A stretch of DNA of 64,000 nucleotides from an uncultured Methanosarcinaceae archaeon (GCA_963727895.1 CAVSHT010000005.1:320001-384000), one strand, 5' to 3'. Positions 45,021-64,000 are shown, counted from the stretch's first letter. Numbers and translations are program-made. The notes: generated by a model not told the origin, from the letters alone.

Positions 45021-45303
45021 GAAAATTGCTCATTGAATTTGATAGGACTTATGCAGTTGCCTACTTTACAGGCAACTTTCGAGTTTTTACTTTTTAAGCT
45101 AATTTATATATTTCTAATAACTCGATTTATAGTATTTTTTGTATTTCTCAATTTTAGGTCGTGCACTAACTAGGTGGTTGATATTTATCTTTGAGCATCT
45201 TTGATTTAGAGCCTCCGAAAAGCGTTGTAAACTACGATCTCAAAAATTGACAGTTCAATCAGAACTGATTCTGGGTGTTACAAATTTATTGTAACAATGA
45301 CTA

Positions 45304-46077: not shown

Positions 46078-46188
46078 TTACTTTCCTTTCTTTCCAGGCT
46101 TTTTTAGTTTATGTTCTGATGCTTTATTTGATGCGGCTTTCGTGCAATTACCTGGATTTATTACCGGTTTGGTTGCTTTCTCAGTCAT
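46078..46188 (-). CDS. Putative 36-aa Lys-rich peptide
   Basis: AGGAG upstream; MTEKATKPVINPGNCTKAASNKASEHKLKKPGKKGK. Confidence 0.3.
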   Translation of the reverse strand: MTEKATKPVINPGNCTKAASNKASEHKLKKPGKKGK

Positions 46189-46989: not shown

Positions 46990-48035
46990 ATGACGGATTA
47001 ATCGCCAGTCGCTGGAAAATCGGAGCAGCCTTGGCTGTAGCGTTGCTTCTGTACTTTTCTTTTCTAATTCTGCTGCCCCTGGCAGACGGAATTGTACTTG
47101 GCATAGTCTTTGCTTACATTGCCAGACCCATCAAGATGAGATTCAAAAAGCATAAAAAAACTGGGGCACTTGCGGCCAGTATGTGTATATTCATCCCAAT
47201 AGTATTCATTGTCGGGGCAGGAATTGTTGAAATTATTAATCAGGTCTCCTGGATTATTAGTAATCAGACCGCAGTCGCGGCAGCCGTTCTGAATTTCATA
47301 AATTCTCTGAACATTCCAGATAAAGTTATAGAAAATGTTAATTCCGCCATCTGGGATCTATTTACCTCGCTGCTCCCTGCAGTAGGACGCATAGGGGTTT
47401 TTTCATATGCTCGAGGAATTGGTCTTTTTGTCGTTAATTTCATAGTTTCGATCATTTTTTGTTTTTATATACTTGCGGATGGTGACAGGCTTTACTTTGC
47501 TTTTCTTGGTGTGATTCCAAAAGAGTATAAGGGAGTTGTAAACCGTTATGCATGTCATCTGGATCTAATTCTTAGAGGAATTTTCATAGGTACTGCTTAC
47601 TCTTCACTTATAGTAAGTGTGACTTCAGTTTTTGTATTCTATGCATTTGGGTTTCCACATGCACTGGCACTTGCAACTCTTATCTTCATAGCCTCGGTAA
47701 TTCCTCTTTTTGCCGGATACATGGTGCTTGTGCCTCTAGCTTTAATGCGTTATATAGAATCAGGGTTTGAAAGTGCAGCATTTTTCTTTGTGGTCTCTTC
47801 TCTCATTATTTATGGGCCTCCCGAACTTATACTCAAACCTTACCTTGCTGGCATGAAATCTAAAATTCATCCGATGCCGCTCATTCTTGCCTTCCTGGGT
47901 GGAGCTTTTGTCGGAGGAATTGCTGGCTTTTTTGCAGCTCCAATTCTTTTGGGAGCCCTGGTTGCAGCTTACAGGGTTTATCAAGAACAAACAATAGCGG
48001 ATGACGAGTTTATACAAAAATTACAAATATCTTGA
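46990..48035 (+). CDS. AI-2E family transporter (possible 1-nt deletion just after ATG; 3' end possibly replaced by the element)
   Basis: Motifs LKPYLAG..SKIHP and LAFLGGAFVGGIAGFFAAPILLG. ATGACGGATTA would read MxGLIASRWK with one added base. Confidence 0.85.
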
Positions 48036-48063
48036 GCCCCACTATATAACCGGAGGTTATATT

Positions 48064-49269
48064 TTGAGGGACGAAAAATTCTTATTTAGCTTTTTTGAAA
48101 AGAACAACACTTCCAAAAGAAACCAAGAAATTGCTTGGCGATACATTGACAAATATTTTAGAGATCCAGGTAGTGGACTATCTGAAGCGACTGTACAAAA
48201 TAATATTGACATTTTGTCTGTGATTCTTAAATTTGTTGATACTGATCTTGATAATTTAACGCAAGATGATGTTGACACGTTTAAAATAGGCATCAGTAAA
48301 TACAAAAAGAATAATGGTCAGCCAATTGCAAAAGCCTCAATGAAACACTATTATGTCGGGTTCAAGCAGTTTCTCAAATGGGCAGCAAGAGAATATCACA
48401 AGCCTGAGTATCGGGATCTGAGCGAGAACTTTTCGACAAAGTTAAAAACAAAAAAGAAAAATGCTTCTGATCTTTTGACTGAGCAAGAGATTGACAAAAT
48501 TTTTGCAGCAGCAATACATCCCAGAGACAGAGCAATTCTTTCAGTCTTGTCTGAGAGTGGCTGCCGAGCAGGTGAGCTTGTCAGTATGCAGATCAAGCAT
48601 GTGAAGTTCACAAATGAATTCGTCTGGGTTACATTCCCGCAAAGTAAAACAACACCTCGGGCTGTGCCATTAAAAGAGTCGATGATATATCTGTCAGCTT
48701 GGCTTACACATCATCCATTGAAATATGACGAGGAAGCACCTCTTTGGGTTTCACTGAACCCAATATCTGCCACAAAGGGCGGTGGTGATCGTGCCTATCA
48801 ACCGATGCCGAGGTCAGCTGTACTTGAGCTTGTTCATAGACTTGCAAATAAAGCGGGGATAAAGAAGCGATGCTATACTCATCTGTTCAGACATTGTGCA
48901 GCCACAAAAATGTCAAAAGAATGGACTGAGCCACGAATGCGGAACTTTTTTGGCTGGTCAACTCACTCAGCAATGCCTTCGGTCTACTCACATTTGGGAG
49001 CTGGGGATTTCGAAGAAGCAATGAGAAAACTGTGCGGCACAGCAGAAGAAAGAAAACCCGAACCTAAATTCCAAAAATGTCCCAGATGCAAGCGTGAATT
49101 GCCAAAAAGGGCTGAGTACTGTGATGTTTGCGGCACAAAGCTTGGGAAGCAGCAGGTTCAAAAAGCTGATGATGATCTTGCAAGTCAAATGCGTCGTATA
49201 CTCTTAGAAGAGCATCCAGAGATCTTACAAAAAATTGTTCTCGCGATGACAAAATCACAAAATCAATAA
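48064..49269 (+). CDS. Tyrosine recombinase/integrase with C-terminal Zn ribbon
   Basis: Motifs RDRAIL..ESGCRAGEL, SKT, HLFRH, FFGWS, YSH and CPRC...CDVC. GGAGG precedes TTG 48064; the ORF is open from 48001. Confidence 0.93.
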   Translation: MRDEKFLFSFFEKNNTSKRNQEIAWRYIDKYFRDPGSGLSEATVQNNIDILSVILKFVDTDLDNLTQDDVDTFKIGISKYKKNNGQPIAKASMKHYYVGFKQFLKWAAREYHKPEYRDLSENFSTKLKTKKKNASDLLTEQEIDKIFAAAIHPRDRAILSVLSESGCRAGELVSMQIKHVKFTNEFVWVTFPQSKTTPRAVPLKESMIYLSAWLTHHPLKYDEEAPLWVSLNPISATKGGGDRAYQPMPRSAVLELVHRLANKAGIKKRCYTHLFRHCAATKMSKEWTEPRMRNFFGWSTHSAMPSVYSHLGAGDFEEAMRKLCGTAEERKPEPKFQKCPRCKRELPKRAEYCDVCGTKLGKQQVQKADDDLASQMRRILLEEHPEILQKIVLAMTKSQNQ

Positions 49270-49384
49270 CGGTAAAAGATTACATATATGTTGAAACAAT
49301 AATTATTATTGAAAGTGACTTACTTCGGCGAGATTGCCTCGATGAAAGCATATCACTCTTTTAAATGAATATCGAGGCAATATT

Positions 49385-49537
49385 ATGACCCAAACATTTG
49401 AAGAACAGGCTGCTGAGCTTGTCCGCCAAAATACTGACAGTGTAAAGAGGATTACACAGTATCATTCTGACGCTTTCACTAGAGCAATGGCTCAAGTGTT
49501 TCTTGAGACAGCGGGTGAGCAGCCATGTCAGACCTAA
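49385..49537 (+). CDS. 50-aa hypothetical protein (not in ORF track)
   Basis: GAGG upstream and MTQTFEEQAAELVRQ...; overlaps the next gene. Confidence 0.5.
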   Translation: MTQTFEEQAAELVRQNTDSVKRITQYHSDAFTRAMAQVFLETAGEQPCQT

Positions 49538-49830
49538 AAATGGTCAAAGCCTGCCCGAATTGCGATAGTACGCACCTCCACTATCGAAAACGAACAAATG
49601 ACTATCACTGCATTCATTGCAAATCGGTATTTAGTGAGCCCATAGAACGACCTGCAAAGCCCAAAGGTCATGAGCTCGGCATGTGTGGCAAATCTCGTCA
49701 GTGTCCAGAATGTGGCAGTCGAAAGACGAGATATAGTAGCCCTCGACTCAATGGCCCTAAGCATTGGGTCTGTACATATTGTTATAATACTTTTGATGTG
49801 AACCGAGACTGCCAAGCCCGCAATGCCTAA
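49525..49830 (+). CDS. Double zinc-ribbon protein
   Basis: CPNC..CIHC and CPEC..CTYC. Confidence 0.75.
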   Translation: MSDLKMVKACPNCDSTHLHYRKRTNDYHCIHCKSVFSEPIERPAKPKGHELGMCGKSRQCPECGSRKTRYSSPRLNGPKHWVCTYCYNTFDVNRDCQARNA

Positions 49831-50032
49831 ATTAGATCCGGGCCTACTTCGAGCTTGCCCAAATTGCGACAGCGCTAATATCTATCATGCAAAGCATGAT
49901 TGGCGATGTCATTCTTGCAATAGTGTTTTTGAGCAACCTATCCAGCGGGCAAAGAAAACGTGGCGTTGCAATACCGATTCAGCATATAGACCATTGCCTA
50001 AATTTTTGAAAATTATAAAGAGGGATAATTGA
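49823..50032 (+). CDS. Zinc-ribbon protein
   Basis: CPNCDS..WRCHSC; paralog of the previous gene. Confidence 0.72.
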   Translation: MPKLDPGLLRACPNCDSANIYHAKHDWRCHSCNSVFEQPIQRAKKTWRCNTDSAYRPLPKFLKIIKRDN

Positions 50033-50181
50033 TGGTCAGAGCTATCAATCCCAATAAAAAAATTAATACTTCGCTTTCATTTGACCTTGAGGTCATAGCA
50101 ATTATTGATAGAGAGCGAGGCATTGACAGTCGTAGCGGGTGGCTCAACGACCTAATTTTAGAGATGTTCGAGGGCGAGTGA
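50032..50181 (+). CDS. 49-aa ribbon-helix-helix-like protein (not in ORF track)
   Basis: MVRAINPNKKINTSLSFDLEVIAIIDRERGIDSRSGWLNDLILEMFEGE, with a TGATG overlap. Confidence 0.6.
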   Translation: MVRAINPNKKINTSLSFDLEVIAIIDRERGIDSRSGWLNDLILEMFEGE

Positions 50182-50183
50182 CG

Positions 50184-51149
50184 ATGAAGATTCCGACAAC
50201 GACATCGATCACGGCCTGTCCACACTGTGGCAGCTATCACATTATAAAAAGGATATTTTACTATTATTGTTCAAAGTGCAAAAATACATTTGAACAGCCT
50301 GAAATACAGCTATTTTCAGGGCCAGTCATCGATGAGAAATATAAAGTAAAACAACGTGAGAAAAACATTAAGGCAGGACTAAAGCTGCTATGGGAGTACA
50401 AAAAACAAGTAATACCTCCTACACAAGTAATACCACATATACAAGTAGCAAAGTCCCACGAAGATGTTCTTAAAAATATCAACCAAAAATTAGACCAGCA
50501 GCAAAAACACGAACTCACAGATGAGCAAAGAGAGTGTTTTGCGCAGCTGGTGGCGTTCAACACACTAATAAAAAATATATCAACCTCTCTAAAAGACGAT
50601 CTGCAGCTGGCGTCGCCAATTCCACCAGAGCCAAAACCGAGGCAGGCCACAAACTACGTTCCTATATGCCCAACCTGTGGCAGCACCCAACTAAATCCGC
50701 CGCGTGGTGACCGGTGGGAGTGGTACTGCCCGAAATGTATGAAGATGTTCGATAAGCCTGAAACCCGTGAAAAACAGCCTGTAAAAAGCGATAGACTTGA
50801 GATCGAAATAGAGAAAAGAGCGATTCTTCGGGATATTAAAGTGGGTTTGAGGCTACTATGGAAGCAACAAGAGGTTGTAAAGCCTAGAAAGCCTGTAAAA
50901 AGCAATAAAATTCCGAGAGTAAAAATACCCGAGATACAAATGCCAGAACAGTTGTTTGAAGTTGTTGACAAAAAGCCAAAACCAAAGTCTAGAAAAGCCC
51001 AAGTTCCAAGATCAGAACCCATAATATCCCTCGATCCAGCAGAACAACGAAGAATAGAGGTTCTTAGGGATATTAAGGTTGCCTGCAAGCGCACTAAAGG
51101 TCAAGTACGAGCTCTTCAGCCTGTTTTTATGGCTAAAAAAGCAAAATAG
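50184..51149 (+). CDS. Basic protein with two Zn ribbons and three IKxGL/RDIKV repeats
   Basis: CPHC..CSKC, CPTC..CPKC; NIKAGLKLLW, DIKVGLRLLW, DIKVAC. Confidence 0.7.
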   Translation: MKIPTTTSITACPHCGSYHIIKRIFYYYCSKCKNTFEQPEIQLFSGPVIDEKYKVKQREKNIKAGLKLLWEYKKQVIPPTQVIPHIQVAKSHEDVLKNINQKLDQQQKHELTDEQRECFAQLVAFNTLIKNISTSLKDDLQLASPIPPEPKPRQATNYVPICPTCGSTQLNPPRGDRWEWYCPKCMKMFDKPETREKQPVKSDRLEIEIEKRAILRDIKVGLRLLWKQQEVVKPRKPVKSNKIPRVKIPEIQMPEQLFEVVDKKPKPKSRKAQVPRSEPIISLDPAEQRRIEVLRDIKVACKRTKGQVRALQPVFMAKKAK

Positions 51150-51229
51150 GAAGCAAAATTGCTGCCAAACTAAGAGCTAAAACGTTAATGAATATCTTTG
51201 AAATTGTGGATGAAATTCATAAATTCTAA

Positions 51230-51589
51230 TTATGACCTATTAACTGGAGTTCCTGCTGGTGGAGTTGCTCCTCTGGGAGGAATGGTACCGTTGGCTGACA
51301 TATTATCTGGGTGCATTGTTGAATTAGGTGGCATGTTCCCCATTTTTCCTTCTGGAGGCATTGTCGCATTATTTGGCACATTTCTTGATTTTCCTCCAGA
51401 GGGCATGTTATTAGGTGACATGTTACCGGGGTTTCTTTCAGCAGGTCTCGTATTATTGTTTGACATATTGCCTGCGTTCTTTTCTGTAGGTGTAGCGTTG
51501 TTAGATGTTTTATTGTCAGTACATCCTGACATCGCTAATACTAACATAAGTAGCAAACCAATCACTAAAAAACTAACTTTTCTCATCAT
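51230..51589 (-). CDS. Low-complexity lipoprotein
   Basis: Lipobox AMSGC followed by N/P/G/M-rich repeats. Confidence 0.7.
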   Translation of the reverse strand: MMRKVSFLVIGLLLMLVLAMSGCTDNKTSNNATPTEKNAGNMSNNNTRPAERNPGNMSPNNMPSGGKSRNVPNNATMPPEGKMGNMPPNSTMHPDNMSANGTIPPRGATPPAGTPVNRS

Positions 51590-52114
51590 ATTACCTCAAT
51601 AGATTGGACTTTATAAAATAAAGTCACTTAATCACTAAAAACTTTTGCATGATATTCAATCAATATTCTCAAAATCTTTTTTCAAAAAAGCTTGCAGAAA
51701 TGAAAAGTTTGGGTCGAAAACGATGAAGTGAGCCAGCTTTCCCGACAAAATACATTAGAGAACTTTCAAGCCTTGGCTATGATGTTCACTATACTAGTTC
51801 TGAAGAAGAACAGCTTGAAAATCTTAGGCAGCTTGCTGAAGCTAAAAATGACGAAGTGCTGAAAAGCACTTACTAATTTTCTTTTTTGATATTTATATCG
51901 GGATATTTAGGAAAAGTAGTATCGGGCAACCTATATATCCCTCCTCAAAACGGTATAACTAAATTGTTAAAAACCTTTATATACTTTACATAGTTATTTA
52001 CTTATATATACAAAGTAGTAAATTATAAACAGAAGTTGTCCTCCGGCGGCTGGATCAGCCGATGTATAATTACGAAAACTGCTTTTTTAATCGAATAAAC
52101 AGGAGGAACAATAA

Positions 52115-52339
52115 ATGGGCAATGTGAGAAATTTTGCATTTAGTGCAGATCCACGAGAATTCATGTCAGTACAGAACAAAACCGATGAAATTGCGAAGCA
52201 ATATCCTGGTTTTTCAAGGTCACTTGTCTGGAAAACCCTATTAATTGAAGTGCTTGGTGTCGAGCCTTTAGATCCTGATATGCATAAGGTCTATCTCAAT
52301 CGTATAAACAAAGCGCTTGGAAAGCAGGAGAACAAATAA
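52115..52339 (+). CDS. Small putative DNA-binding protein upstream of the replication gene
   Basis: AGGAGG SD and a 74-aa ORF containing SRSLVWKTLL. Confidence 0.6.
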   Translation: MGNVRNFAFSADPREFMSVQNKTDEIAKQYPGFSRSLVWKTLLIEVLGVEPLDPDMHKVYLNRINKALGKQENK

Positions 52340-52503
52340 GCTCAAAAGAAGGTGTGTCAAGGGCGCCCGAAATCGCCCCTGAGATCGGTTGAGAACATGA
52401 GTAAATTGGTCACAAAACCCATATAATAAAAGGGTTTGAACCTATTTACATATTATGTCTGCCGATATCGTTTTTGACGCACCTCTTTTAGGAGGTCATA
52501 AAC

Positions 52504-54887
52504 ATGAGTGAAGCAAATAATTCACAGGATAATATGCAGTCACCCGAAAAGGTTGAGGGAGAGCCCGAGGCAGTTTATGTTCAGGCACCCGTCGATGAAG
52601 TGCAAGCGAGAATTGAAAAACTTGCAAAAAAGACTGGTAAAAGTGCTGATATTATACAGGCAGAACTTGATAAGATCATGCAAAACATGCGCGGTGATGG
52701 AGTTAATAATGCAACTCAAGCTGACAAATTGCGAGGAGCACTTATATTTTTAGAATCGCAAGTGTCCAACTACACAAAAAGTGTATTACCTGCTGATGAA
52801 TGTGAAAGTTCTAGTATAATGTCACAAACACGAGCTGACAAGTTTTATGGTTTAAAGCGAAATCCAAATATAGTGCACATCGATTCAAAAACTTACATTT
52901 TGCCATATGATGAGGAGAAAGGCGTATACTATGAATTCGATTCCAATCCTGAGACATCTGGCAAGCGTGGTGAGATTGTTAAAATCACTGCAAAACGAAA
53001 TAAAGACGAGTCATATTTCTGGATCAGAGAGAGAATATGTAACTGTATGACCATGGTTACAAGCTATCATCACTCGTTGGAGTCAACACATTGTTTTGTT
53101 GAAATTGCATATACTGACTACAGTGACAGAACTGCAATATGGAAACAAAAAACAATTCCAGCTGAAGCAATAGCAACAAAAGATGGACTTAAAAGAGTTG
53201 TTGTGCCAGAAGGCATAGCCATTATTGAATCGCAGTTTCAAGATATGATTGAATTCTATAGCTTGTGTATTGCACATAATGATCATCAGAAAAATACAGA
53301 TTTCACTTGTGGTAGTGTGACTGAAACCACTGGCTGGAAAAAAATCAACAAAACTGATATGACATCTAACATATTTGTTGTTGGGAATTATGCATATTAT
53401 CTCAAAAATAACAATATCGAGCGACGCTGTTCACTATTCAACGATACTAAAAATGCTGACGTTGAATCTAAGCTTCAACAAAAAGGCACATTGGAAGGCT
53501 GGATTGATGCGGTACGACCACTTATCGGCCACAATATCGTTAGAGTAGTTTGTTATGCCGCAATGGCATCAACATTAATCAAAGTTCTAGGAAGTCCACA
53601 ATTTACACTTGGTATAGTAGGCGAGAGTTCGATCGGTAAAACACTTTCGACGCAAGTTGCAGCAAGTCTCATCGGAAATCCAAATGATAAAGATGGTGGA
53701 CTATTAGATAGTGGTGATGTCTCAATTACTGGTTTGAGTGCAATTGTCACAACATTTAATGATCTCCCATGTTTCTTTGATGAAACAACAACAATGAAAG
53801 AAGACGTGAAAAAATATCTGGGTTATTTGATTGCAAATGGTCAAGAACCAAAGAGAGGAACAAAAGATGGAAAACTACGTGACAAACATCCAATTAGATC
53901 TAATGTGATACTGACTGGTGAAACCGATTTTATCTCAAGAGTTGCAAATGATGGTGCACAAACGAGAGTTATAGTGATTAGAGATCGACCAATTCCAAAG
54001 CTTGACTACCCGAGCATACTATGGCAGTCGAGGGATAAAATGCTGGAAAATTTTGGTCATGTAACACCACTATTTCTCAAGCAAATCGATATGCTAGGTA
54101 GACAGCAACTTATCAATGCATATCATGTACTTAGAGAATATTATGCGAAGACAACAACCGATGAAAAACAACAAAGAAAAGCACAGTGTTTTGCTTTGAT
54201 GGAAATTGCCGGGATATTGCTCGAAAAAGTATTTGTGAACATTGGAATTGAATATAAGGATCCTCATAAGGTCACTCAGTCACTTTGGGAACGCTGTGTT
54301 ATAGAGAAACCTGATGTATCACTTGCTGTACGAATCGCACAATCAATAGATGAATATATCGAATCAAATAAACTAAATAATTTCATCGTCAATAATAATA
54401 AAGATGCCAAAATAAGTGGTGATGGACTATATGGCTATATTAAAATAAAAAACGACGAATACAACGCTTGTTTGTACCCAGATAAGCTCAATGCACATCT
54501 CAGAAAACATGACTATAGTATGACCCCAGTGTTTGTTACAGGGATTTGAAAGTAAAGGGTATAATCAAAGTCGATCCAAAGAGACGCGATTTTACAAACA
54601 ATGTTCACCGTGGTGGAAATAGACTTCAGCTAATCAACATTGACATGCTTAAGTTGCAGGAATATATAGGTATGAAATCAGAGCCAGATTACAATACTGA
54701 TGACATCACTGATGTACTCGGGGATGTGATAGCATATTCAACTCCTATAATATCACCTGTGACTGGCGAGCCAATACGGACATGGAGTGATTTAAATAAG
54801 CCTTGTAAGAAACTCGAACCAAAAAAACAAATCGATGAATCCGAGTTTCCACAAAATCCCTACGATTCTATTGATGATGAATGGTAA
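52504..54887 (+). CDS. DUF927-like P-loop replicative helicase, frameshifted near 54520
   Basis: TGWK, GTLEGW, Walker A GESSIGKT, Walker B CFFDE, NGQEPKRG, LTGE, GAQTR, ENFGH. The tail continues in another frame (DPSVCYRDLKVKG). Confidence 0.8.
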
Positions 54888-54999
54888 ATTCCTAAAAAAA
54901 TATCTGAACTAATCTTCTTTTTTGAGCCGCGTCTGGACTCTACAGTATAATTTTATTGTAAGTGTAAACCTTTTTTTGATATTTTTACCATTTTTTTGA

Positions 55000-55402
55000 T
55001 CAAAGTCCATAAAAAATCGGTTGCAATATGGACTTTTTTATGGACTCTTTTCGGTATTGGTAGACAACTTGAAAAAAGCTTTATGGACTTTTATGGACTC
55101 TCAAAACGATATCCCAATACCGAAAAATCAAGAAGTCCATAAAATTTGGTCAAATTACACGTATATACGTAAATATATTCATACGCACGCATGAGTAAAT
55201 ATTAATTAATTTATGAAGTTCTAACATTATAAATTTGTTTATATGCGAATTCTTCCTATAAGGGTGTAGATTCTTTACGGACTTTATGGACTTTTATTAC
55301 TATATATACTTAGATGTATTCATACACTTATACCAATACCGAAAAGAGTCAAAAAAAAGGTCCATAAAAAAGTCCATAAAGGTCCATAAAATTATGGACT
55401 CT
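55000..55402. repeat. Putative replication origin: about a dozen TATGGAC(T) boxes in both orientations plus a 20-bp inverted repeat
   Basis: GACTCTTTTCGGTATTGGTA (55043-55062) and TACCAATACCGAAAAGAGTC (55331-55350) enclose an AT-rich core. Confidence 0.65.
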
Positions 55403-55520
55403 GATTGGGTGCCATAGAATTTTTCTTTATTAGTATAACATCGTTATTATTTATTTGACCATTAAATTTCAGGTCAGCCTATAGATAGTTAAATTTTTAA
55501 CGCTATTAAAATTTTTGTTC

Positions 55521-55775
55521 GAGGATATTTTGGAAGCGAGCCTTCGTACCTGGGCTAAGCCAAATATCCCCTAGGCTTGAACAATTATAGCTACGCAAGT
55601 AAGCAAGATCGTTATGCGAAGGCTACGAGGCTCCATAGAGGCTCTACGAGGATGAAAAGGTACAAATAAGAGGGATAGATGATTCACTCAAAGTATATTT
55701 ATCTTAAATAAGATCTAACAGCCCGAAAGATTCACTTCCAAAATATCCTCCAAATCCACTATAGCGGCTCTATAT
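55521..55775. repeat. GGATATTT/AAATATCC palindromic unit, copy 1
   Basis: Perfect 16-bp IR at 55521-55536 and 55735-55750. Shares blocks with 58255-58443, 59777-59898, about 62260-62310 and 62840-62889. Confidence 0.7.
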
Positions 55776-56082
55776 CTCGTATAAATGAAAATTAATAAAG
55801 CCTATGACTATTTTTATTACAAAGAATCTTATTAACTATTCCTATATTCTCTAAAATTTCGCAGTCTATTTTTTGAGATATTTAGGAAGGTTTAACAAAT
55901 CACCTAATCCACCTTTTTAAATTCAGACTTCACCTCTTTGTTACTTAATTCCCTAATAACTAATTCTAAATTTCTTAATTTTTATAAAGTTCATATCCAA
56001 AAGAAAAGTTTTAAGAATTTATCTGATATCTGATTATTAATATTTTAAAATAAAATCAAATATTATCAGAGGATTAAATATA

Positions 56083-57639
56083 ATGAAAAGTCATAACAAA
56101 ATTAAGTACAGAGATTTAATATCTGTAGTTCTAATTTTAGTTTTATTATTGGTATCATCTGTGGCATCTTTGGCCACTGCACAGACTGGTTCTTCCGGAA
56201 ATACTGCATATGTTACTAATGATGACGGAACTATTTCTATCATAAATACTGCATCAGACACTGTTATAGCCACAGTGCCTGTGGGAAATGATCCTTATGG
56301 AACTACAATTACTCCAGATGGAACAATAGTTTATGTGACAGATTACAAAGCTAACAAAGTTTATGGAATTGACACAGCTACAAATACTGTTACAGCCACA
56401 ATACCTGTAGGCGATGTCCCTTATGGCATTGCAGTTACGCCAGATGGAAAAAAGATCTATGTAGCAAATAATGGAGATAAGACAGTTTCGGTAATTGACA
56501 CAGCGTCAAATAGTGTTATAAAAACAGTTTCTGTGGATAGTAATCCTTATGGAGTAGCAGTTAACCCATCGGGAACGAAAGCATATGTAACAACCTCAGG
56601 TAGTAATTCTGTATATGTAATTGACACTTCAACAGATACTGTTACAGATAAAGTAACTGGATTAAGTGGTGCCTATGGAATTGCCTTTAATCCAGATGGT
56701 TCACAATATTACATAACAGAGAGGGGAACTAACAGTGTTTCTGTCATTGACAGTGAATCAGATAAGGTTGAGACGAGTGTACCTGTAGAAAAAGACCCAC
56801 ATGGAGTTGCAGTAAGTCCGGATGGAACAAAAGTATATGTGGCAAACAATGGAGATAACACCGTTTCTGTAATTGACACAGCCACAAATACCGTTACGGC
56901 TACAGTAAATGTTGGAAATGCTCCTTTTGGGGTTGGAGTTACATCAGATGGAACAAAAGTATATGTAGCTAACCGTGGACAAGATAATCGTCAATTAAAA
57001 ACTGTATCGGTAATTGACGCATCAAGCAATAATGTTATAAGTACGATAAATGTAGGAACCAATCCAAAGGCTTTTGGGTTATTTATAAGCAGTTATTCAT
57101 CAGCCACTGAATCTAATACAGGAACTTCTACTAATACAGGAACTTCTACTAATACAGGAACTTCTACTAATACAGGAACTTCTACTAATACAGGAACTTC
57201 TACTAATACAGGAACTTCTACTAATACAGGAACTTCTACTAATACAGGAACTTCTACTAATACAGGAAATTCGACTCTTTCTAAAGTTATTAACAATTAT
57301 AATAATATTACCATATATAATAAAACTAGTAATAATAATAACAATAATATAAATAGTGGAAATAATATTACAGGCAATAATATCAATATAGGAAATACTA
57401 CAAACAGTGGTAATAATATTAGTCATAGTAACATCGATAATAAAAATAATACGAGTAATAATAACATAAATGGCAATAATAATATAAATGGCAATAATAA
57501 TATAAATGGCAATAATAACATAAATGGCAATAATAACATAAATGGCAATAATAACAACTCTACAGAACATGGGTCTAGTTGGTTAGATGTTATTTATGAA
57601 GGTGTTATAGCCAAGCTGTTTGAGTTAATAAAATTGTAA
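56083..57639 (+). CDS. Secreted YVTN beta-propeller protein with TNTGTS and Asn-rich tail
   Basis: Seven roughly 42-aa repeats (P.G.AV.PDG.K.YV.N....VSVID) and an 18-bp repeat x8 at about 57112-57268. Confidence 0.92.
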   Translation: MKSHNKIKYRDLISVVLILVLLLVSSVASLATAQTGSSGNTAYVTNDDGTISIINTASDTVIATVPVGNDPYGTTITPDGTIVYVTDYKANKVYGIDTATNTVTATIPVGDVPYGIAVTPDGKKIYVANNGDKTVSVIDTASNSVIKTVSVDSNPYGVAVNPSGTKAYVTTSGSNSVYVIDTSTDTVTDKVTGLSGAYGIAFNPDGSQYYITERGTNSVSVIDSESDKVETSVPVEKDPHGVAVSPDGTKVYVANNGDNTVSVIDTATNTVTATVNVGNAPFGVGVTSDGTKVYVANRGQDNRQLKTVSVIDASSNNVISTINVGTNPKAFGLFISSYSSATESNTGTSTNTGTSTNTGTSTNTGTSTNTGTSTNTGTSTNTGTSTNTGTSTNTGNSTLSKVINNYNNITIYNKTSNNNNNNINSGNNITGNNINIGNTTNSGNNISHSNIDNKNNTSNNNINGNNNINGNNNINGNNNINGNNNINGNNNNSTEHGSSWLDVIYEGVIAKLFELIKL

Positions 57640-57646
57640 AGAAAAA

Positions 57647-57768
57647 GGCTCTGTAGAAAACTTATCTAAATCAGTTACTATAAGCTAAAAACCAATTTGC
57701 AAAAATATATCAATTAATTCAGTTAATATTAATTGGGACTTTTCGTATAAGAGGATATCTACAGAGCC
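57647..57768. mobile_element. MITE with GGCTCTGTAGA TIR
   Basis: GGCTCTGTAGA...TCTACAGAGCC. Confidence 0.65.
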
Positions 57769-57984
57769 AAAAAAGTATATTTAAATGTAAGAATTAAAGT
57801 ATATCCGAAAAGTTAGTAGTTATATTGAAAACGTTAAAATTTGAATTGGCTTTTATCCACAAGCTAATCAATTTTATAAATATAAGGATTCTGGATAATA
57901 ACCTTTATAGATGAACTCATCTAAATCAATAAAGATCATTGTGGTATTTCTTTAAACAGCTCTGGTAAATATGTTTAAATTCTT

Positions 57985-58116
57985 GGCTCTGTATAAATCT
58001 TTAATATTCAGGCGAAAATCAAAGTTAACAATAATTCAAAAAGTAATATCACTTATTGGATAGATTTGCCAGTTTCAATCTGCTGACAGTGGATTTGATA
58101 GGTTTTCTACAGAGCC
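57985..58116. mobile_element. MITE with GGCTCTGTA TIR
   Basis: GGCTCTGTATAAA...TTTTCTACAGAGCC. Confidence 0.6.
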
Positions 58117-58254
58117 AAATTCTGATATCTCTGGTCTTTACCTTATTATGAATAAGGTCAATTCAATTTTAACCTTATTTTGACTTTTTTTCGCGATTTT
58201 TCGATGATGACTCGAAGCAGCCATTTAAGGTTAAAAGAATCTTAACTTTAGTAA

Positions 58255-58443
58255 GGGATATTTGAGTCGATTGTCGTTAGAAATTACCAAATAGCCCTTG
58301 GCTTGAACAATTATGGCTACTGAAGCCAGCAAACCCGCTATAGAGGAGCTACGAAGCTCCAGGATATGTCTACGTGGCTGAGATGGATAGATGAGGCTGA
58401 TTCGAGAGACCCGAAAGTCAGGCTGCTAATTTCCAAATATCCT
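58255..58443. repeat. GGATATTT/AAATATCC palindromic unit, copy 2
   Basis: GGGATATTTG..CAAATAGCCC, then GGCTTGAACAATTATGGCTAC as in copy 1, ending CCAAATATCC. Confidence 0.65.
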
Positions 58444-59211
58444 AAAGCCTGCATATTTTGGGAATAGTTTAACTACATAATAACTCATTTTGTGATGGGT
58501 CTAGCAATAAGGTTTAGTCTTGGGCAAATAATATCCCTGCATCTATAAATTATGCTTAAGTCATTGACGCTTATGATAACGATTTTTATCTTAATCACGA
58601 GTTCTATGAATTACAAACGTTGCTCTGTAGAAATAGTAGGGGCAAAGCATATGAAATACCCTAGTTATTTGATAAATCCAAACTCCTAAAGTACATTATT
58701 TTTGTGAAGATTACGGCCTTCTTTTCTAGATATAATACACCTCTCTCCTTTTAGTGGAATAAAAGACCTTAATAGCTTAGTTCTACAGGAAAAAACTTCA
58801 CATGTGTGGTAGGAGTGGATATAAAGGACTGTCGGAAGACATAGAAGGGATCTCTCGTCTCAAATGTTTTAAACTCAATTTTAAACGGATATGTGATGAG
58901 GGTTAAAAAATTGTTATTTTTAGAATCTACCTATTTTGAAGATCAAGTGTTATAAAGCTTTAAACTCGCTTTTTGATTTTTATTTAAGATCCTAAAAATA
59001 AGTATGTTTATATGCAAAAATTAACTAGTTGATTTCGATTGTAAGTACCATCAGATCAAATGTAACCTAATAAGATAAAAAAAAGTAATGTCTATTTAAT
59101 AAAAAACATTAGTTCTCTAAAACCCATAGAAATTCCCTAAAATTCTATTAGGTTTCGATTGTTGGTATTTTTAGATCAAATTAAACCCAAGATTAATACG
59201 GAGGAAACGTA

Positions 59212-59604
59212 ATGCGAAAAAATATGTTTAAAACAGTATGTATTTTTACATTGGTCTTTTTAGTTCTGTCAATGACAGGAGCAGCATGCAGTAACAGTTG
59301 TAAAACAAAAACAGATGCAAGAAACGATGTTTTTACATGTAGCTGTAAATCTTGTTGCCATAATGTTCTGAGTAACGACAAAGGATGCAGCCTTAAAGTT
59401 ACAAACACAGGAACTATCAAGACCAAACTCGGCGGCACAGTAAAGATGTCCAGCAACGGTAAGTTCTGTTACACAAAACCAGCAAGCTGCAAATCTTGCA
59501 CTGACAGTTTCAAATACTGTGTAAAAGGTAAAAATGGATCTGATTGTGCAACCGTTACAATTAAAAACAGTTGCTCAAGCTGTTCAAGCTGCTCAACCTG
59601 CTGA
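59212..59604 (+). CDS. Secreted Cys-rich protein with one Ig-like (Big_9/cadherin-like) domain
   Basis: Signal peptide, then ARND..VLSND..GTVKMSSNGKFCYT..DSFKY..ATVTI. GGAGG SD. Confidence 0.72.
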   Translation: MRKNMFKTVCIFTLVFLVLSMTGAACSNSCKTKTDARNDVFTCSCKSCCHNVLSNDKGCSLKVTNTGTIKTKLGGTVKMSSNGKFCYTKPASCKSCTDSFKYCVKGKNGSDCATVTIKNSCSSCSSCSTC

Positions 59605-60433
59605 AAGTACCTTCAGTACTTGATTCGGTAGGAATACTTTTGCAATCAAACACATTAAAGGGAAAAGGAAGGGTTGATCTTCCGGGGTTTAAACCCTAAA
59701 TCCCTTAATGCTTTTACTTAATTACTATCTATTTTTACCCGTTCTTGATGTTGATAGAACTGAATTCTATTTTGCTGGGATATTTTATCCTCAGCGTGGC
59801 AATATTACCACTTCTTCAATCCTAGCTTAAGGATATTGGCTTGCCAATCACACTTATTACACTAATATCCCCTAAACCCACTACAGCGGCTCTATATATC
59901 TTACAGTAGCCAGCCTGCCCGATGCGTTGTTACCCACACATCGGAGTGCTGAGATGGGATGTTAGTGTTGATCCTTTTACCCAATACAGCTATGTTTTGG
60001 AAAGAGTTAAGACTTGGAAAAACTTGGTTTCTGGGGCTGGTAAAAGCTCAAGTAGATTCCTTTATGGTTTGTAATCAGTTAAAACAGAATTATCTTTAGG
60101 AAATGAAAATATTTGAAATTATATTTTTCTCATTCCTTAGTATATCCCTAGCAGATATTTTTTGCAACAAAACTCTGTGTAGTCTATGTCTGTGATAAAC
60201 TTTCAACATTTAATTACATTTGTCTGGAGGCAAAAATGCTATCGTTTAATTTTCACCAAATAATACAAGAACCAAAATTACTTGCATCTGTTTTAAAAAC
60301 GCTATCAAGAAAAATATTAGTTTAAAAAATAATGTGGGATCTTGAATATACATAAACAAATATAAAATTATTATCCCCTATGAATCAATAAAAAAGAAAG
60401 TTTTAATAATTATACTTTATTTTAAGTATTCAG

Positions 60434-62004
60434 ATGATTACAAAGGAAGATATAGAAATATCAATTGATAAAAAAGTATATTTGTCTCTTTTAATTATAT
60501 TTTTATTTCTTCTTTCATTAACGGCATCGATAGCTGCTGCACAAACTGCATATATCACTAATGATGATGGAACGGTTTCTGTCATAAATACTGCATCAGA
60601 CATTGTTATAGCCACAGTGCCTGTGGGAAATGATCCTTATGGAACTACAATTACTCCAGATGGAACAATAGTTTATGTGACAGATTACAAAGCTAACAAA
60701 GTTTATGGAATTGACACAGCTACAAATACTGTTACAGCCACAATACCTGTAGGCGATGTCCCTTATGGCATTGCAGTTACGCCAGATGGAAAAAGATCTA
60801 TGTAGCAAATAATGGAGATAAGACAGTTTCGGTAATTGACACAGCGTCAAATAGTGTTATAAAAACAGTTTCTGTGGATAGTAATCCTTATGGAGTAGCA
60901 GTTAACCCATCGGGAACAAAAGCATATGTAACAACCTCAGGTAGTAATTCTGTATATGTAATTGACACTTCAACAGATACTGTTACAGATAAAGTAACTG
61001 GATTAAGTGGTGCCTATGGAATTGCCTTTAATCCAGATGGTTCACAATATTACATAACAGAGAGGGGAACTAACAGTGTTTCTGTCATTGACAGTGAATC
61101 AGATAAGGTTGAGACGAGTGTACCTGTAGAAAAAGACCCACATGGAGTTGCAGTAAGTCCGGATGGAACAAAAGTATATGTAGCTAACCGTGGACAAGAT
61201 AATCGTCAATTAAAAACTGTATCGGTAATTGACGCATCAAGCAATAATGTTATAAGTACGATAAATGTAGGAACCAATCCAAAGGCTTTTGGGCTATTTA
61301 TAAGCAGTTATTCATCAGCCACTGAATCTAATACAGGAACTTCTACTAATACAGGAAATTCAAATAATAATAATAATAATAATTATAATAATAATAATAA
61401 TAATTATAATAATAATCTTGATGTAACTGATATATATCTTGAAAATAATAAACAAAAAGCAAAACTTGCATTCAATCCTACTCCACAAATGATATTTGGT
61501 AAATCAAAAAAAGTTGATGCATACATTACTACGAATCTATCAAAGAATATTTCTCAAGAATACGGATTAAATGGAACACTTCAATCTAAGAATATTAATG
61601 CAACACCAACAGTGAGAGTTACATTAACAGGTGAAACTGGAGCTTTTAACATAGAGACAATCCCTCCGAATTCGAATGGAATTCAGAACATAACAAACGA
61701 TATTGTATATTGGAATTGGCAAGTAACACCACTAGAATCGGGAAAGCATAAACTTTTCTTATCTGTTGAATATGTAATACCTCTAAATGATTATGACTCT
61801 CAAAATTACAAGACTCTCAAAGACATAGAGGAAGAAATAAATGTAAAATCAAACTACGATTATTGGTTTTCAAAATATTTGTGGGAAATACTTGGTGCTA
61901 TAGTTGGAATAGTTGGTATGATAAGTAGTATACTAACTATACTGGAGTTTATACGAAAATTTATACAAGAGTTCCTTAACAAGCATAAAAAAGAGAATAG
62001 TTAA
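60434..62004 (+). pseudogene. Second YVTN protein with C-terminal beta-rich domain and TM anchor; frameshift (A6>A5) near 60790
   Basis: Core DNA is near-identical to the 56083 gene, but the leader and C-terminus differ (WNWQVTPLESGKHKL, TM helix). Confidence 0.85.
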
Positions 62005-62349
62005 GATGATATTGATTAATAGTACTATACTCTAAAGTGTTGGCTACGACAATTTTACATTTGGCATTTTATGAGTATAACTTAAATGAATGATGATTCT
62101 ATTTTTTCCTGCCTGAACTCTATTTTTTCATTAAGGGTTCTCTAGGTATAAGTATTAATGGGCTATCTTTCAGGGTATATATTAAATTTCAAAGTTACTG
62201 CAACGTTTCATTAATTTTTTCAAATTTACTTTCCACTTTATAGACATTTTACCAAATAGACCTAAATATTACATCCAATACTCCACAATAAACGTAGGAA
62301 GGCTACGAGATTGTAGGGGGCTAAAAAGAGGGTTGTGGGAATTTGGTGC

Positions 62350-62766
62350 TTATTTCCGCTCTGCCAACTCATATCCCTGCTCAATCACGTTTACCAACCA
62401 ATCGTTCAAAAACTCATTAAGCTCCTTCTTGAGCTTTGGGCTATACTTTCCTGGCTCTGGATATACCTCTTGATAAATGCCCAGATAGTCGTTTTGAAAA
62501 GTAAGAGCCTCGGCGGATTTTGAAGCTGGGTATATCTTGACTTGCACATCTGGGTCCGCCATCACATCACCGTTCTGGATGCCATTATGAGCTAGAGCAA
62601 TAATATCATTCAAGAGGTTATCTACACTAAGATCCATAAGGCCCGAAGCCTTGAATTTCATATACTCGGCTTGCATAACCCCGGTTTCGTCCAATATCCC
62701 CAGTTCTTGTAGGTTTCTATAAATCGATTCATATATTGTCTGTTTTATTTTACCCACCCACTTCAT
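62350..62766 (-). CDS. DUF1249/DUF6908-like protein
   Basis: Motifs GLMDLSVD, LAHNGIQNGDVMADPDV, AEALTFQND, LNEFLNDWLVN..EQGY. Confidence 0.7.
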   Translation of the reverse strand: MKWVGKIKQTIYESIYRNLQELGILDETGVMQAEYMKFKASGLMDLSVDNLLNDIIALAHNGIQNGDVMADPDVQVKIYPASKSAEALTFQNDYLGIYQEVYPEPGKYSPKLKKELNEFLNDWLVNVIEQGYELAERK

Positions 62767-62917
62767 ATTATTTTATAATGTATATATAATTCCTTCCTCA
62801 TGTATTTTTGGTAATTTTCGATATAGTGAGCCAGTCGTTGGGGATATTTTGGTCGCAGAACTTCGAAGTCACTCGCTACCAAATATTACATAAAGTTTGA
62901 ACTTTATATATAATTAC

Positions 62918-63154
62918 ATGGAGAAAAGTTTATCAACCGAGCCACCAGTTCAAGTTACGAATAAACACAAGACTTTAGTTGATGTCTGTTTTTCTATTGC
63001 TGCATGCATTGGGTACACACAAGGTGTGTTCACAATATCTGATCTAATACTATTTTTCTGTTTGGTGATCATTCTAAACTTTGTAAGTATTTATATCGAA
63101 ATTGACGCCACGAGAATAGGAAAAATCAAACAGTTGATTAGAGAATGTAAATAA
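62918..63154 (+). CDS. Small two-TM hypothetical protein
   Basis: Hydrophobic segments and a downstream hairpin TCGGGGC..GCCCCGA. Confidence 0.45.
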   Translation: MEKSLSTEPPVQVTNKHKTLVDVCFSIAACIGYTQGVFTISDLILFFCLVIILNFVSIYIEIDATRIGKIKQLIRECK

Positions 63155-63234
63155 GTTACCGATCGGGGCTTTAAATAGTCGGCCCCGAATGTATATATTG
63201 TTAAACGGATATAGCGACAAAAAACGAAAATAAA

Positions 63235-63426
63235 TCACGATTCACAGGTTCCAGCTGTGAGTTGTGAAAGACGTAGAAGCATAATTTATCAGTATTTTTT
63301 TGAAGTGATTATCGAGAAGGATTAATATCCAGCCAGACAAAAATGCTAGCGTTGGAATGATTGGAAAATTTATTTCAATCATTCTAAAAAAAATCACAAC
63401 TCACAGCAGGTAACTGCGAATTGTGA
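63235..63426. repeat. Inverted pair of 13-7-13 palindromic sites
   Basis: TCACGATTCACAG-GTTCCAG-CTGTGAGTTGTGA (63235-63267) and TCACAACTCACAG-CAGGTAA-CTGCGAATTGTGA (63394-63426). Confidence 0.75.
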
Positions 63427-63603
63427 AGTCAATTGTTAAGCGTATAGAGTGATGCAGTATCACCAAATTCATCTTATTTTTCTATTTTAGTTTTGTTTAA
63501 TCTAATATCGTGTCGCTTGTTGCTGATTCCCAAACAATATATATTTATACATTTAGTACTATAATAATTTTTGTCTAAAAATAATTAAGTTGGAGGATCA
63601 ATA

Positions 63604-64000
63604 ATGACAAACACACAGAAATTAGATGTGGAATCATATTTCGAAGCAAATAGCAAATTTTTTGAAAGTGGGGATAGTAATGGCAAGAAGGCGTTTTTCT
63701 TATTGGGCCAATACACTAGAAAGGTCATGGAATGCCAAGAGAAAGTCATAGCCGAGAATGGTGGCGAGGATAAATATCAAAAGAGATTGACAAGCCTGGT
63801 GCGAAGCAATATGACCTATAGGGTCTTCGCAGAGCTTAACAAATTGCTTGATGATATAGCACTAAAATGTGACGCAAAGCTGTTTTACACCCACAACGGC
63901 CTGTCAAAACAATATATGATAAACGCAGAGCTACCCAATGACAAAAAGGCTTTGCCTGTAGAAGATAGTAACACAGCTTTTTCGTTGGGACTTTGCCAGA
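63604..64000 (+). CDS. Stand-alone protein resembling the Cas8b/Csh1 C-terminal (Cas11-like) domain; runs off the window
   Basis: GGAGG SD. MTNTQKLDVESYFEANSKFFESGDSNGKKAFFLLGQYTRKVMECQ...SKQYMINAE...LPVEDSNTAFSLGLCQ. Confidence 0.6.
   Translation, partial: MTNTQKLDVESYFEANSKFFESGDSNGKKAFFLLGQYTRKVMECQEKVIAENGGEDKYQKRLTSLVRSNMTYRVFAELNKLLDDIALKCDAKLFYTHNGLSKQYMINAELPNDKKALPVEDSNTAFSLGLCQ

Follow-up and report, generated by a model that had tools for sequence, protein, structure and literature searches.

Palindromic units in Methanosarcina integrated elements: a possible new family of gene-boundary repeats

REP/BIME repeats and REPINs go with RAYT transposases, while mosaic intergenic arrays flanked by dRS3 in Neisseria represent an array anatomy known by the term NIME. 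An integron has short ORFs in a tandem series, most of them pointing the same way, with an attC site close behind each. The attC sites fold into stable single-stranded hairpins and are composed of boxes R''/L'' and L'/R' with the consensus RYYYAAC/GTTRRRY, and pdif modules are known from Acinetobacter plasmids. The dRS3 repeats (ATTCCC-N8-GGGAAT) have a spacer fixed at 8 nt, number in the hundreds on the chromosome, and have a phage recombinase and the Ssn nuclease as known partners (PMC11893778); integrons have an IntI with an IntI-specific additional domain, archaeal integrons included (PMC9668308); the Xer/dif layout is 11-6-11, with 11-bp arms and a 6-bp spacer (PMC2958812); and MITEs are common to prokaryotes and their viruses (PMC11602168).

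Here we analysed a window of 64,000 nucleotides from an uncultured, methane-making Methanosarcinaceae archaeon (GCA_963727895.1 CAVSHT010000005.1:320001-384000), which holds part of a 29.3-kb integrated element with palindromic units. Like attC sites, these units have conserved inverted arms and variable centres and follow the ORFs of unrelated cargo genes, but the arms read GGGATAT/ATATCCC and, in contrast to integrons, there is no IntI and no compact same-direction array, single-strand folds are weak, and arms are also found in the element core. The likeness to pdif lies in cargo modules between short inverted-repeat sites, on mobile DNA with a Xer-like tyrosine recombinase; unlike dif and pdif, the sites lack a fixed 6-bp spacer and have arms of only 7-12 bp. 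With REP/BIME repeats they share imperfect palindromes of 20-50 nt at gene 3' ends and in convergent gaps, single or composite, and genus-wide relatives in tandem arrays. They resemble dRS3 in being short palindromic repeats with conserved arms that are enriched beside variable genes, and in the proposed recombination homology, the link to phage biology and the mosaics formed with other conserved blocks (PMC11893778), but they are archaeal, have arms spaced 3 to 40 nt apart in the window, and within this genome are confined to integrated elements. Taken as a whole, they have the look of a repeat family, not described before, that sits at gene boundaries and at which pieces of such elements were swapped.

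Anatomy and enrichment of the palindromic units

The element is bounded at both ends by a 20-bp direct repeat. Its features in the window are given below; those with no sign have no strand.

47972..47991, left attachment core, a 20-bp perfect direct repeat (CAGGGTTTATCAAGAACAAA); twin at window-equivalent 77294-77313, past the window end
48001..49269, +, tyrosine integrase (not an integron integrase), zinc ribbon at the C-terminus
50029..50181, +, 50-aa protein, putatively ribbon-helix-helix-like by sequence pattern, conserved in all three palindrome-bearing loci
51900..51941, hairpin H1, GGGATATTTAGG...CCTATATATCCC, in the element core upstream of the Rep module
52504..54549, +, Rep, a replication helicase with DUF927
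55000..55400, putative origin with iterons, which are GTCCATAAA repeats in both direct and inverted orientation
55518..55753, unit A1, 236 nt; 27-nt ends 85% complementary, perfect 14-nt core GGATATTTTGGAAG
56083..57639, +, cargo gene YVTN-1, beta-propeller surface protein
58251..58442, unit A2, with hairpin 58256-58297 and, at 58433-58442, right arm CCAAATATCC; its body is related to those of A1 and A3
58480..59840, +, Cys-rich gene segment (gene proper 59212-59604); second copy on C4:400150-398766, 92%
59777..59871, unit D1 core, made up of mini-palindrome GGGATATTTTATCC, TGGCAATATTACCA and hairpin 59831-59870 in that order
59872..59948, right flank: CCACTACAGCGGCTCTATAT and hairpin CCGATG...CATCGG, common to D1 and D2 (91%) and partly to A1
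60434..62004, +, cargo gene YVTN-2, in two frames (60434-60805 and 60874-62004)
62250..62330, unit E: decayed arm CCAAATAGACC and GGCTACGAG...GGCTAAAAAGA
62350..62766, -, DUF6908 gene (53% identity with the corresponding gene of the related element described below)
62841..62889, hairpin H6, right arm decayed (AAATATTAC), between divergent genes

The arm-bearing sites belong to larger units, either as their ends or as internal parts: A-type units of 190-236 nt, D-type units of about 95-170 nt, and hairpins of 40-50 nt. The initial annotation had described six palindromic sites sharing one strict motif, GGATATTT-N-AAATATCC. Inverted arms of the GGATAT/ATATCC type are present at all six, but the exact motif occurs only at 55523-55569, within A1 (0 of 100 shuffles match), and the other five sites have 1-3 arm mismatches. 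The perfect 16-bp terminal inverted repeat ascribed to the first copy, H1, amounts to 11 of 12 paired arm bases. The listed site at 55693-55748 does not form an independent hairpin (single-strand fold -1.9 kcal/mol, z -0.5), and what serves as its right arm is A1's terminal repeat on that side. The adjacent shared blocks were all recovered, namely GGCTTGAACAATTAT at 55574 and 58300 with one extra copy on contig C4, GCTACGA at about 55622, 58347 and 62302, and CCACTAYAGCGGCTCTATAT at 55756 and 59878. Two of the proposed half sites are real (58433-58442 and 59778-59790), whereas the one at about 62263 is weak (AAATATTAC). The D core begins with GGGATAT and finishes with ATATCCC, and terminal inverted repeats, a feature of MITEs, are present in both A1 and the D core. 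Single-strand folds of the hairpins range from -1.9 to -8.4 kcal/mol, with z below -4 in two of the seven folded pieces and above -2.3 in the other five.

Enrichment was measured with 6-base arms (GGATAT-N(1-64)-ATATCC) across the 3.67-Mb genome, which contains 49 such pairs. Four fall in 51900-62889, where 0.15 are expected (Poisson P 1.7e-5), and the whole element has seven against 0.39 expected (P 1.9e-7), two of which, at 57753 in an unrelated MITE and at 67714 in an ORF, look like chance. BLAST of this genome places the units only at C5 and C4:398766-405436, both mobile-element loci, and finds no MITE-like scattered copies elsewhere in it. Units are not limited to the cargo region, as one lies in the core (51900) and more lie past the window end.

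Every cargo gene is separated from the next by a unit, as had been proposed, in the order ori-A1-YVTN1-A2-Cys-rich-D1-YVTN2-E-DUF6908-H6. This arrangement had suggested integron-like or pdif-like gene capture. In such a system the palindromes would be site-specific recombination sites, and the element integrase at 48001 or host XerA would cut and rejoin DNA at the arms and thereby capture, excise and invert modules. Besides units flanking every cargo gene, such a mechanism would suit the duplicated Cys-rich segment that terminates within an arm, the mosaic identities described below, and a gene order and orientation that are shuffled between elements as symmetric sites would permit; archaeal XerA is also the integrase's nearest curated family. 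The integrase nevertheless falls far under both cut-offs, scoring 30.6 bits against the integron-integrase model TIGR02249 (cut-off 265), with a match to residues 147-228 only, and 93.9 bits against XerA, its best match (cut-off 220). Neither CAGGGTTTATCAAGAACAAA nor the attachment core of the related element, TTATAAAAAAT, resembles the palindrome arms, which are thus distinct from the att cores at which the element's own integrase would act. Nor is there an IntI or a fixed site geometry, and the single-strand folds are weak. The cargo is not compact, with non-coding gaps that reach about 1.5 kb (57640-59211) and a MITE and an IS remnant in the region, and gene orientations are mixed, DUF6908 lying on the opposite strand. 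Another integrase in the genome, 82% identical, has no such palindromes near it. Among the joints listed from public contigs none links one unit to another, but these contigs are too fragmentary to weigh on either side. Cassette capture is therefore a doubtful explanation, and we regard it as distinctly unlikely.

A related element in another Methanosarcina species

A 31.5-kb element in genome G017, bounded by the direct repeat TTATAAAAAAT and with relatives that show the empty site, encodes a Rep 32% and an integrase 30% identical to those of the window's element, and at this level of about 30% protein identity the arms are conserved. It contains seven perfect GGGATAT-N-ATATCCC pairs, with mutually unrelated spacers of 5 to 34 nt, and 63 heptamers, compared with no pair and one heptamer in 12.5 kb of flanks; seven of the eight matches to GGGATAT-N(3-45)-ATATCCC in the G017 genome are within the element. 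The shared genes differ in order and orientation between the two elements. In both, hairpins occupy corresponding places, where they follow the iterons, the Cas11b-like gene and DUF6908, the last of which has arms on both sides in each element, and unit E, 3' of DUF6908, occupies the position of unit U1 in the G017 element. With two imperfect hairpins counted beside the seven perfect ones, seven of nine lie 4-106 nt past, or overlap, the stop codon of a mechanically called ORF. Several are between convergent ORFs, and T6-T7 runs follow two of the nine.

Positions at or after stop codons, between convergent ORFs and before occasional T runs would be consistent with arms that are fixed cis-regulatory sites, neither mobile nor recombining. 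A small element or host protein would bind them, mark gene ends and block read-through between modules, and exchange would be a by-product of short homology. Mycobacteriophage stoperators are a comparison for dispersed binding sites that block read-through, and protein-assisted terminators are another. Arms conserved at matching positions while spacers diverged point in the same direction, and the weak single-strand hairpins favour recognition as duplex DNA. A candidate for the binding protein is the 50-aa protein common to the three palindrome-bearing loci (79% and 41% identity), for which a strand-less N-terminus and two helices are predicted, compatible with a ribbon-helix-helix fold. However, Pfam gives no match for this protein at E up to 10, its structure model is poor (pLDDT 62.7), and its presumed DNA-reading N-terminal stretch differs between the window's genome (G000) and G017. 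A dimeric operator with arms anywhere from 3 to 40 nt apart would be unusual, and T runs occur at only two of the nine hairpins. Regulation alone also leaves unexplained a 96% identical 52-nt hairpin in unrelated DNA and a same-ended genus family in genomes for which the Rep query returned no relative. We consider fixed regulatory sites a serious alternative, albeit on the unlikely side.

Mosaic identities and possible exchange at the arms

A second, decayed element on contig C4 carries copies of the units. The hairpins of A1 and A3 are 96% identical (50/52) with upstream flanks at 40%, and the bodies of A2 and A3 share 82% identity. Upstream, D1 resembles D3 (93%), and downstream it resembles D2 (91%), the downstream flank of D3 being unrelated (48-49%). 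The Cys-rich segment is the sole cargo block duplicated in the genome (92% over 1387 nt); its end falls within the left arm of hairpin 59831-59870, and between its start and an arm lie 38 nt in the window and 11 nt on C4. A 98% identical stretch common to both YVTN genes has both ends intragenic, not at arms. By our own reading, six of 11 homology ends lie no more than 5 nt from an arm, two lie 38-39 nt away and three are more than 75 nt away, and BLAST alignments tend to terminate at conserved islands. With just three palindrome-bearing elements known, two of which share a genome, the mosaic represents few events.

Our tentative reading, which we place somewhat short of an even chance, is that the units are REP/dRS3-like boundary palindromes that served as exchange points. 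The GGGATAT/ATATCCC arms would be the ends of small non-coding palindrome-ended repeat units, which may occur in full form (about 95-236 nt) or as collapsed hairpins (19-50 nt) and, within a single lineage of integrated elements in Methanosarcina, would fill the intergenic gaps. The same short arms are found again at each module boundary, so that they could act as portable junctions. Arm-bounded segments would have been exchanged between two related elements of the same cell, and gene order would have been shuffled between species. We infer that the arms may themselves have been the place of exchange, as opposed to ordinary homologous recombination across the adjoining conserved 60-90 nt, and that a trans-acting protein, not necessarily element-encoded, may recognise the arms and keep them uniform. 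Against this reading, no enzyme that acts on the arms was found, and the retention of hairpins at corresponding positions despite the divergence of the two elements would suit a fixed functional site no less than a mobile repeat.

A fairly improbable alternative is an undescribed recombination system that acts on GGGATAT-N-ATATCCC, with a host- or element-borne recombinase or nuclease that would cut at the arms and transfer arm-bounded modules between elements and chromosome or invert them. In archaea, such a system would correspond to pdif/dRS3 modules or integron cassettes, without IntI, and the blocks of other species that combine a unit with a 132-aa winged-helix gene would be one such module.

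A genus-wide repeat family

A family with the form GGGATAT...TTGTACGTGGCTTC...ATATCCCAGAAGC, whose ends are those of the window's units, occurs in 28 of the 59 Methanosarcina genomes, and a genome can hold as many as 20 matches; these often stand in tandem and lie in ordinary parts of the chromosome. An nhmmer profile built from 12 full units finds a clear copy in the G017 element (E 2e-15) and, with E up to 10 allowed, no match in the window's genome; when 74 kb are searched, A2 comes up at E 0.24. Compared with the family consensus, A1, A2 and A3 each beat 498-499 of 500 dinucleotide shuffles and D1 does no better than shuffles. Judged by sequence similarity, the link between this family and the window's units appears weak.

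Like MITEs, the units are non-coding and intergenic with inverted ends, and are found in genus chromosomes and integrated elements. The initial annotation's suggestion of a MITE gains from these inverted ends and from a same-ended family scattered over other Methanosarcina chromosomes, but no target-site duplication was seen at A1 and A3, no parent transposase was found, and tandem arrays and 19-nt minimal forms are unusual for MITEs. This alternative is closer than integron or pdif capture. In a check of five genomes, family units lie within about 1 kb of two of seven Y1 (IS200/IS605-type) transposase loci. None of the seven (from G000, G005, G024 and G185) is flanked by arms, and the Y1 ends differ from the arms; unlike REP/RAYT systems, then, no RAYT-like gene is arm-flanked among the checked Y1 loci, and copy number is low.

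The units could also encode or act as structured RNA, such as a 3'-UTR element or small RNA, as had been raised earlier. They lie mostly at gene 3' ends and contain the recurring secondary hairpins CTACG...CGTAG and CCGATG...CATCGG, and a z of -4.6 is obtained for the fold of the mini-palindrome at 59772-59797, whose flanking bases change on both sides (CTG...CAG in D1, CAG...CTG in D2). Rfam, however, gives no match at E up to 1 over 44000-64000, and in related loci only a lone CRISPR repeat and a tRNA. The consensus of nine family units folds weakly (-10.7 and -14.5 kcal/mol on the two strands), with the terminal arms alone paired; the palindromic arms have no strand preference, and copy number is too low for a covariation test. 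An RNA function seems highly improbable. In other species, the family unit and a 132-aa winged-helix gene are found together in multi-copy blocks.

An integrated element carrying the palindromic units

The source genome (3.67 Mb in 19 contigs) contains a perfect 20-bp direct repeat, CAGGGTTTATCAAGAACAAA, at 47972-47991 and again at 77294-77313 in window-equivalent positions, that is, window coordinates continued past the window's end. The left copy falls within an AI-2E transporter gene, at its 3' end. The two copies delimit an integrated element of 29.3 kb, and the palindromic units of the window sit within it. From the left, the element begins with the following features:

48001-49269: tyrosine integrase with zinc ribbon, first from the left
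between the integrase and Rep: zinc-ribbon and small proteins
52504-54549: DUF927 replication helicase (Rep)
about 55000-55400: iterons GTCCATAAA, followed by the region with palindromic units

The palindromes were real in part as first described, and their clustering exceeds chance. Of the six sites listed in the initial annotation, the motif GGATATTT-N(15-45)-AAATATCC fits 55523-55569, while arms at the other five carry 1-3 mismatches; the motif has 2 matches in the whole genome, the second on contig C4. With 6-base arms, the genome has 49 occurrences of GGATAT-N(1-64)-ATATCC, of which 4 fall in 51900-62889 against 0.15 expected and 7 in the 29.3-kb element against 0.39 expected, 2 of the 7 looking like chance. 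Shared blocks adjacent to the palindromes were found at the positions originally reported. The third site, counted as a separate palindrome, has no hairpin of its own, and in the first copy 11 of 12 arm bases pair in place of the claimed perfect 16-bp TIR. Single-strand hairpin folds are weak, from -1.9 to -8.4 kcal/mol. The palindromes form parts of larger units, of A type, D type, or reduced and decayed forms, which are interspersed with other inserts and genes:

55518-55753: unit A1, with 27-nt ends that are 85% complementary and a perfect 14-nt core, GGATATTTTGGAAG
58251-58442: unit A2, on the same plan as A1, with an unrelated hairpin spacer
59777-59871: core of unit D1, a mini-palindrome GGGATATTTTATCC, then TGGCAATATTACCA, ending in hairpin 59831-59870
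51900, 62841 and 62250: reduced or decayed forms H1, H6 and E, respectively
57640-58123: MITE-like insert of 484 nt with inverted ends GGCTCTGTAGAAAAC (30-nt arms, 83% complementary), unrelated to the palindromic units
60137-60173: solo insertion-sequence end, ...TATCCCTAGCAGATATTTTTTGCAAC, 94% identical to ends at 44296-44409, with a copy at C4:406506-406533
60434-62004: YVTN-2, in two frames

A1 comprises a 52-nt hairpin, a body beginning CCTAGGCTTGAACAATTAT, and a second right arm, and the D1 core is followed by a further block consisting of CCACTACAGCGGCTCTATAT and a CCGATG...CATCGG hairpin. The order in the element is ori, A1, YVTN1, the unrelated MITE, A2, the Cys-rich gene, D1, the insertion-sequence remnant, YVTN2, E, DUF6908, and H6; a unit therefore separates each cargo gene from the next, as had been proposed. 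Elsewhere in the source genome, arm matches (C3 radA, C8, C11, and C13) lie in coding DNA and were dismissed as chance, and one weak D-like copy is present at C12:397544-397595.

The genome has 27 copies of GCTCTGTAGAAA, a sequence of the MITE-like insert, often arranged in inverted pairs with 120-470 nt between the members. The GTTGCAAA end of the solo insertion sequence presumably recalls the IS6 family. Compared with YVTN-1, YVTN-2 has one A fewer in a run at about 60797 (GGAAAAAGATC versus GGAAAAAAGATC at 56447).

A second, decayed element and mosaic identities

When six unit-bearing pieces were compared with the genome by BLAST, all 14 matches fell on the window's own contig, C5, or on C4:398766-405436. 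In minus-strand order, the C4 locus consists of iterons, unit A3, genes and insertion-sequence copies, D2, a copy of the Cys-rich segment, and D3; its iterons (CTAAGGAAA, C4:405560-405700) differ from those of the window. C4:389309-392780 contains a broken integrase as well as a Rep interrupted by in-frame stops. Together, C4:389309-392816 and 396000-408000 make up another element of the window's kind, now decayed.

Segment identities among the units are mosaic. The hairpins of A1 and A3 are 96% identical and their upstream flanks 40%, and the bodies of A2 and A3 share 82% identity. Upstream, D1 corresponds to D3 (93%), and downstream it corresponds to D2 (91%); the downstream flank of D3 is unrelated. 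The Cys-rich segment (58480-59840) shares 92% identity over 1387 nt with its C4 copy, and its right end falls inside the left arm of hairpin 59831-59870; the distance between its left end and an arm is 38 nt in the window and 11 nt on C4. Of 11 homology ends, by our own count, 6 are no more than 5 nt from an arm, 2 are 38-39 nt from one, and 3 are at distances above 75 nt.

Tentatively, and with less than even confidence, we read the units as palindrome-ended, non-coding boundary repeats whose arms, recurring at each module boundary, would mark the points of segment exchange between co-resident elements. Against exchange at the arms, the YVTN genes share a 651-nt stretch of 98% identity (56203-56853 and 60545-61194) that begins and ends within the genes. 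As palindrome-ended boundary repeats, the units can be likened to REP/BIME sequences and to dRS3 of Neisseria. According to the sections of PMC11893778 that treat it, dRS3 is a 20-bp palindrome that is enriched near variable genes, is targeted by a phage recombinase, and has been proposed to provide homology for recombination. Some further reading, beyond those discussed here, we consider unlikely.

Little is known about accessory-gene swapping in the viruses and plasmids of methanogens, which are archaeal. If the arms are exchange points, they would make it simple to locate module boundaries and cargo in Methanosarcina mobile elements by sequence, and would supply a concrete substrate in the search for the acting protein. 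The Methanosarcina literature that we searched, mostly papers available without subscription, held no description of this repeat.

A related element and candidate proteins

Of 177 family genomes, 32 have Rep relatives. The best of these (about 32% identical) belongs to a genome of another Methanosarcina species (G017) and lies in a related integrated element:

G017:C3:18712-50217: 31.5-kb insertion carrying a Rep copy

Copies of an 11-bp direct repeat, TTATAAAAAAT, flank this insertion, and the site occurs empty in other species. Proteins common to it and the window element are the integrase (30% identity), Rep (32%), DUF6908 (53%), and a Cas11b-like protein (55%), together with membrane proteins and a protein of about 50 aa, and the order and orientation of the common genes are not the same in the two elements. 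Rep-based locus searches yielded G017 only; in the 19 other Rep-related loci fetched, arm pairs did not exceed the chance level.

The heptamer occurs 63 times within the G017 insertion, which has 7 perfect GGGATAT-N-ATATCCC pairs whose spacers (5-34 nt) are unrelated to one another; the 12.5 kb of flanks examined have 1 heptamer and 0 perfect pairs. Two of the 9 hairpins in the insertion are imperfect; relative to the stop codons of mechanically called ORFs, 7 of the 9 either overlap one or sit 4-106 nt past it. Hairpins occupy three matching positions in both elements: directly past the iterons; directly past the Cas11b-like gene (22040 in G017 and window-equivalent 64027-64064 in the source genome, where the arms are GGTATATT and AATATCC); and 3' of DUF6908, where both also carry GGCTACG...GGCTAAAAGA. 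The arms have therefore been kept while spacers and proteins diverged. Separately, a 2186-aa ORF at G017:C3:33147-39707 has 6 heptamer copies, mostly as ...TTTGGGATATG..., a pattern suggestive of a repeating peptide and not of sites in the DNA.

The main rival to segment exchange, which we regard as somewhat unlikely, is that the arms are fixed binding sites of a small protein and mark gene ends. The protein of about 50 aa is a candidate, being present in all three palindrome-bearing loci (window 50029-50181, window-equivalent 65094-65291, C4:390687-390839, and G017:C3:24059-24211). It has a basic N terminus, a short hydrophobic-polar stretch, and two predicted helices, and looks ribbon-helix-helix-like, but it matched no Pfam family, and the quality of its structural model (pLDDT 62.7) was too low to permit a fold search. 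Were the arms plain regulatory sites of this sort, their interest would be modest, as a lineage-specific boundary signal.

The initial annotation had instead proposed integron-like or pdif-like capture sites between cargo genes, a proposal that did not hold up. The window integrase is not an integron integrase (IntI), and its score is below the XerA cut-off also. In neither element are the integrase's att cores related to the palindrome; the arm spacing is not dif-like; and the defining features of integrons, as given in PMC9668308, are absent from the window element. A true cassette recombination system appears improbable. As to enzymes that might bring about exchange at the arms, none acting in trans was found, and Y1 transposase loci showed no consistent link to the units. 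DUF6908 had no PDB relative at E up to 1. A further integrase at C4:229547-230749, 82% identical to that of the window, has no palindromes beside it; the window Rep query recovered no Rep relative with it, and it may be what is left of a third element.

A genus-wide repeat family with the same ends

Exact patterns taken from the units had no genuine match in three public collections. The 21-mer GGCTTGAACAATTATRGCTAC had 0 matches in genome_contigs and viral_contigs, and a 30-mer D pattern had 0 in viral_contigs. The 8 contigs that a metagenome scan for unit blocks produced all represent a single, unrelated coding region, glycine-rich and of 56-62% G+C, and are therefore chance matches. BLAST of A1 and D1 against 60 relatives did not find the unit sequences, the sole match being 24 nt in one genome (G031). 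The motif, taken strictly, was present in 44 of 177 family genomes as scattered singletons, at most 3 per genome, so it gave no evidence for a family. The best public sequencing run contained 23% of the sampled words; the public contigs, too short and partial to carry weight either way, showed no listed unit-unit joint, and some ended near 55607, 58407, and 59717.

A genus scan for GGGATAT-N(3-45)-ATATCCC yielded units of the type GGGATATATTTGGTCCATTTGGCTACGAGCGATATCCC, and BLAST with one such unit gave matches in 28 of 59 genus genomes (20 in G185, 18 in G005, 14 in G024, and 0 in the source genome). The matches are often tandem, with four units in 700 nt in G185, and adjoin ordinary chromosomal genes. 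Full units are about 115-125 nt long and run from GGGATAT to ATATCCCAGAAGC, which is also the extended right end of several G017 hairpins. A profile built from 12 full units detected a clear copy within the G017 element (E 2e-15); A2 reached just E 0.24, and the whole source genome gave 0 matches at E up to 10. Aligned locally to the family consensus, A1, A2, and A3 beat 498-499 of 500 dinucleotide shuffles, and D1 failed to beat them; the A units are thus tentatively read, with modest support, as distant relatives of the family. Such a link, extending to about half of the sampled genus species, would tie host repeats to infecting elements and could help in assigning elements to hosts. That the units are a structured RNA is very improbable, since neither they nor the family matched Rfam (0 matches) and in the family consensus fold the terminal arms alone pair.

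At L121:1578-1614, in a G185 locus, a single CRISPR repeat (Rfam CRISPR-DR7, 48.8 bits) lies about 600 nt from a family tandem array. No CRISPR array or further repeat was seen near it and no CRISPR repeat in the other scanned loci, and a CRISPR link of the family, resting on one lone repeat near one array, was rejected. Tandem arrays in L121 (G185), L119/L120 (G005), L135 (G189), and L139 (G005) have two recurring linker types, one of which includes AGAGCCGCTACA; read on the other strand, this is the CTACAGCGGCTCT block of the window. A multi-copy gene for a 132-aa winged-helix protein (L122:11637-12159, with copies in G005, G009, G013, and G185) shows about 85% nucleotide identity among copies. 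In at least 6 cases a family unit precedes the promoter region of this gene by about 20 nt; none of the 4 homologues in the source genome has upstream arms or units.
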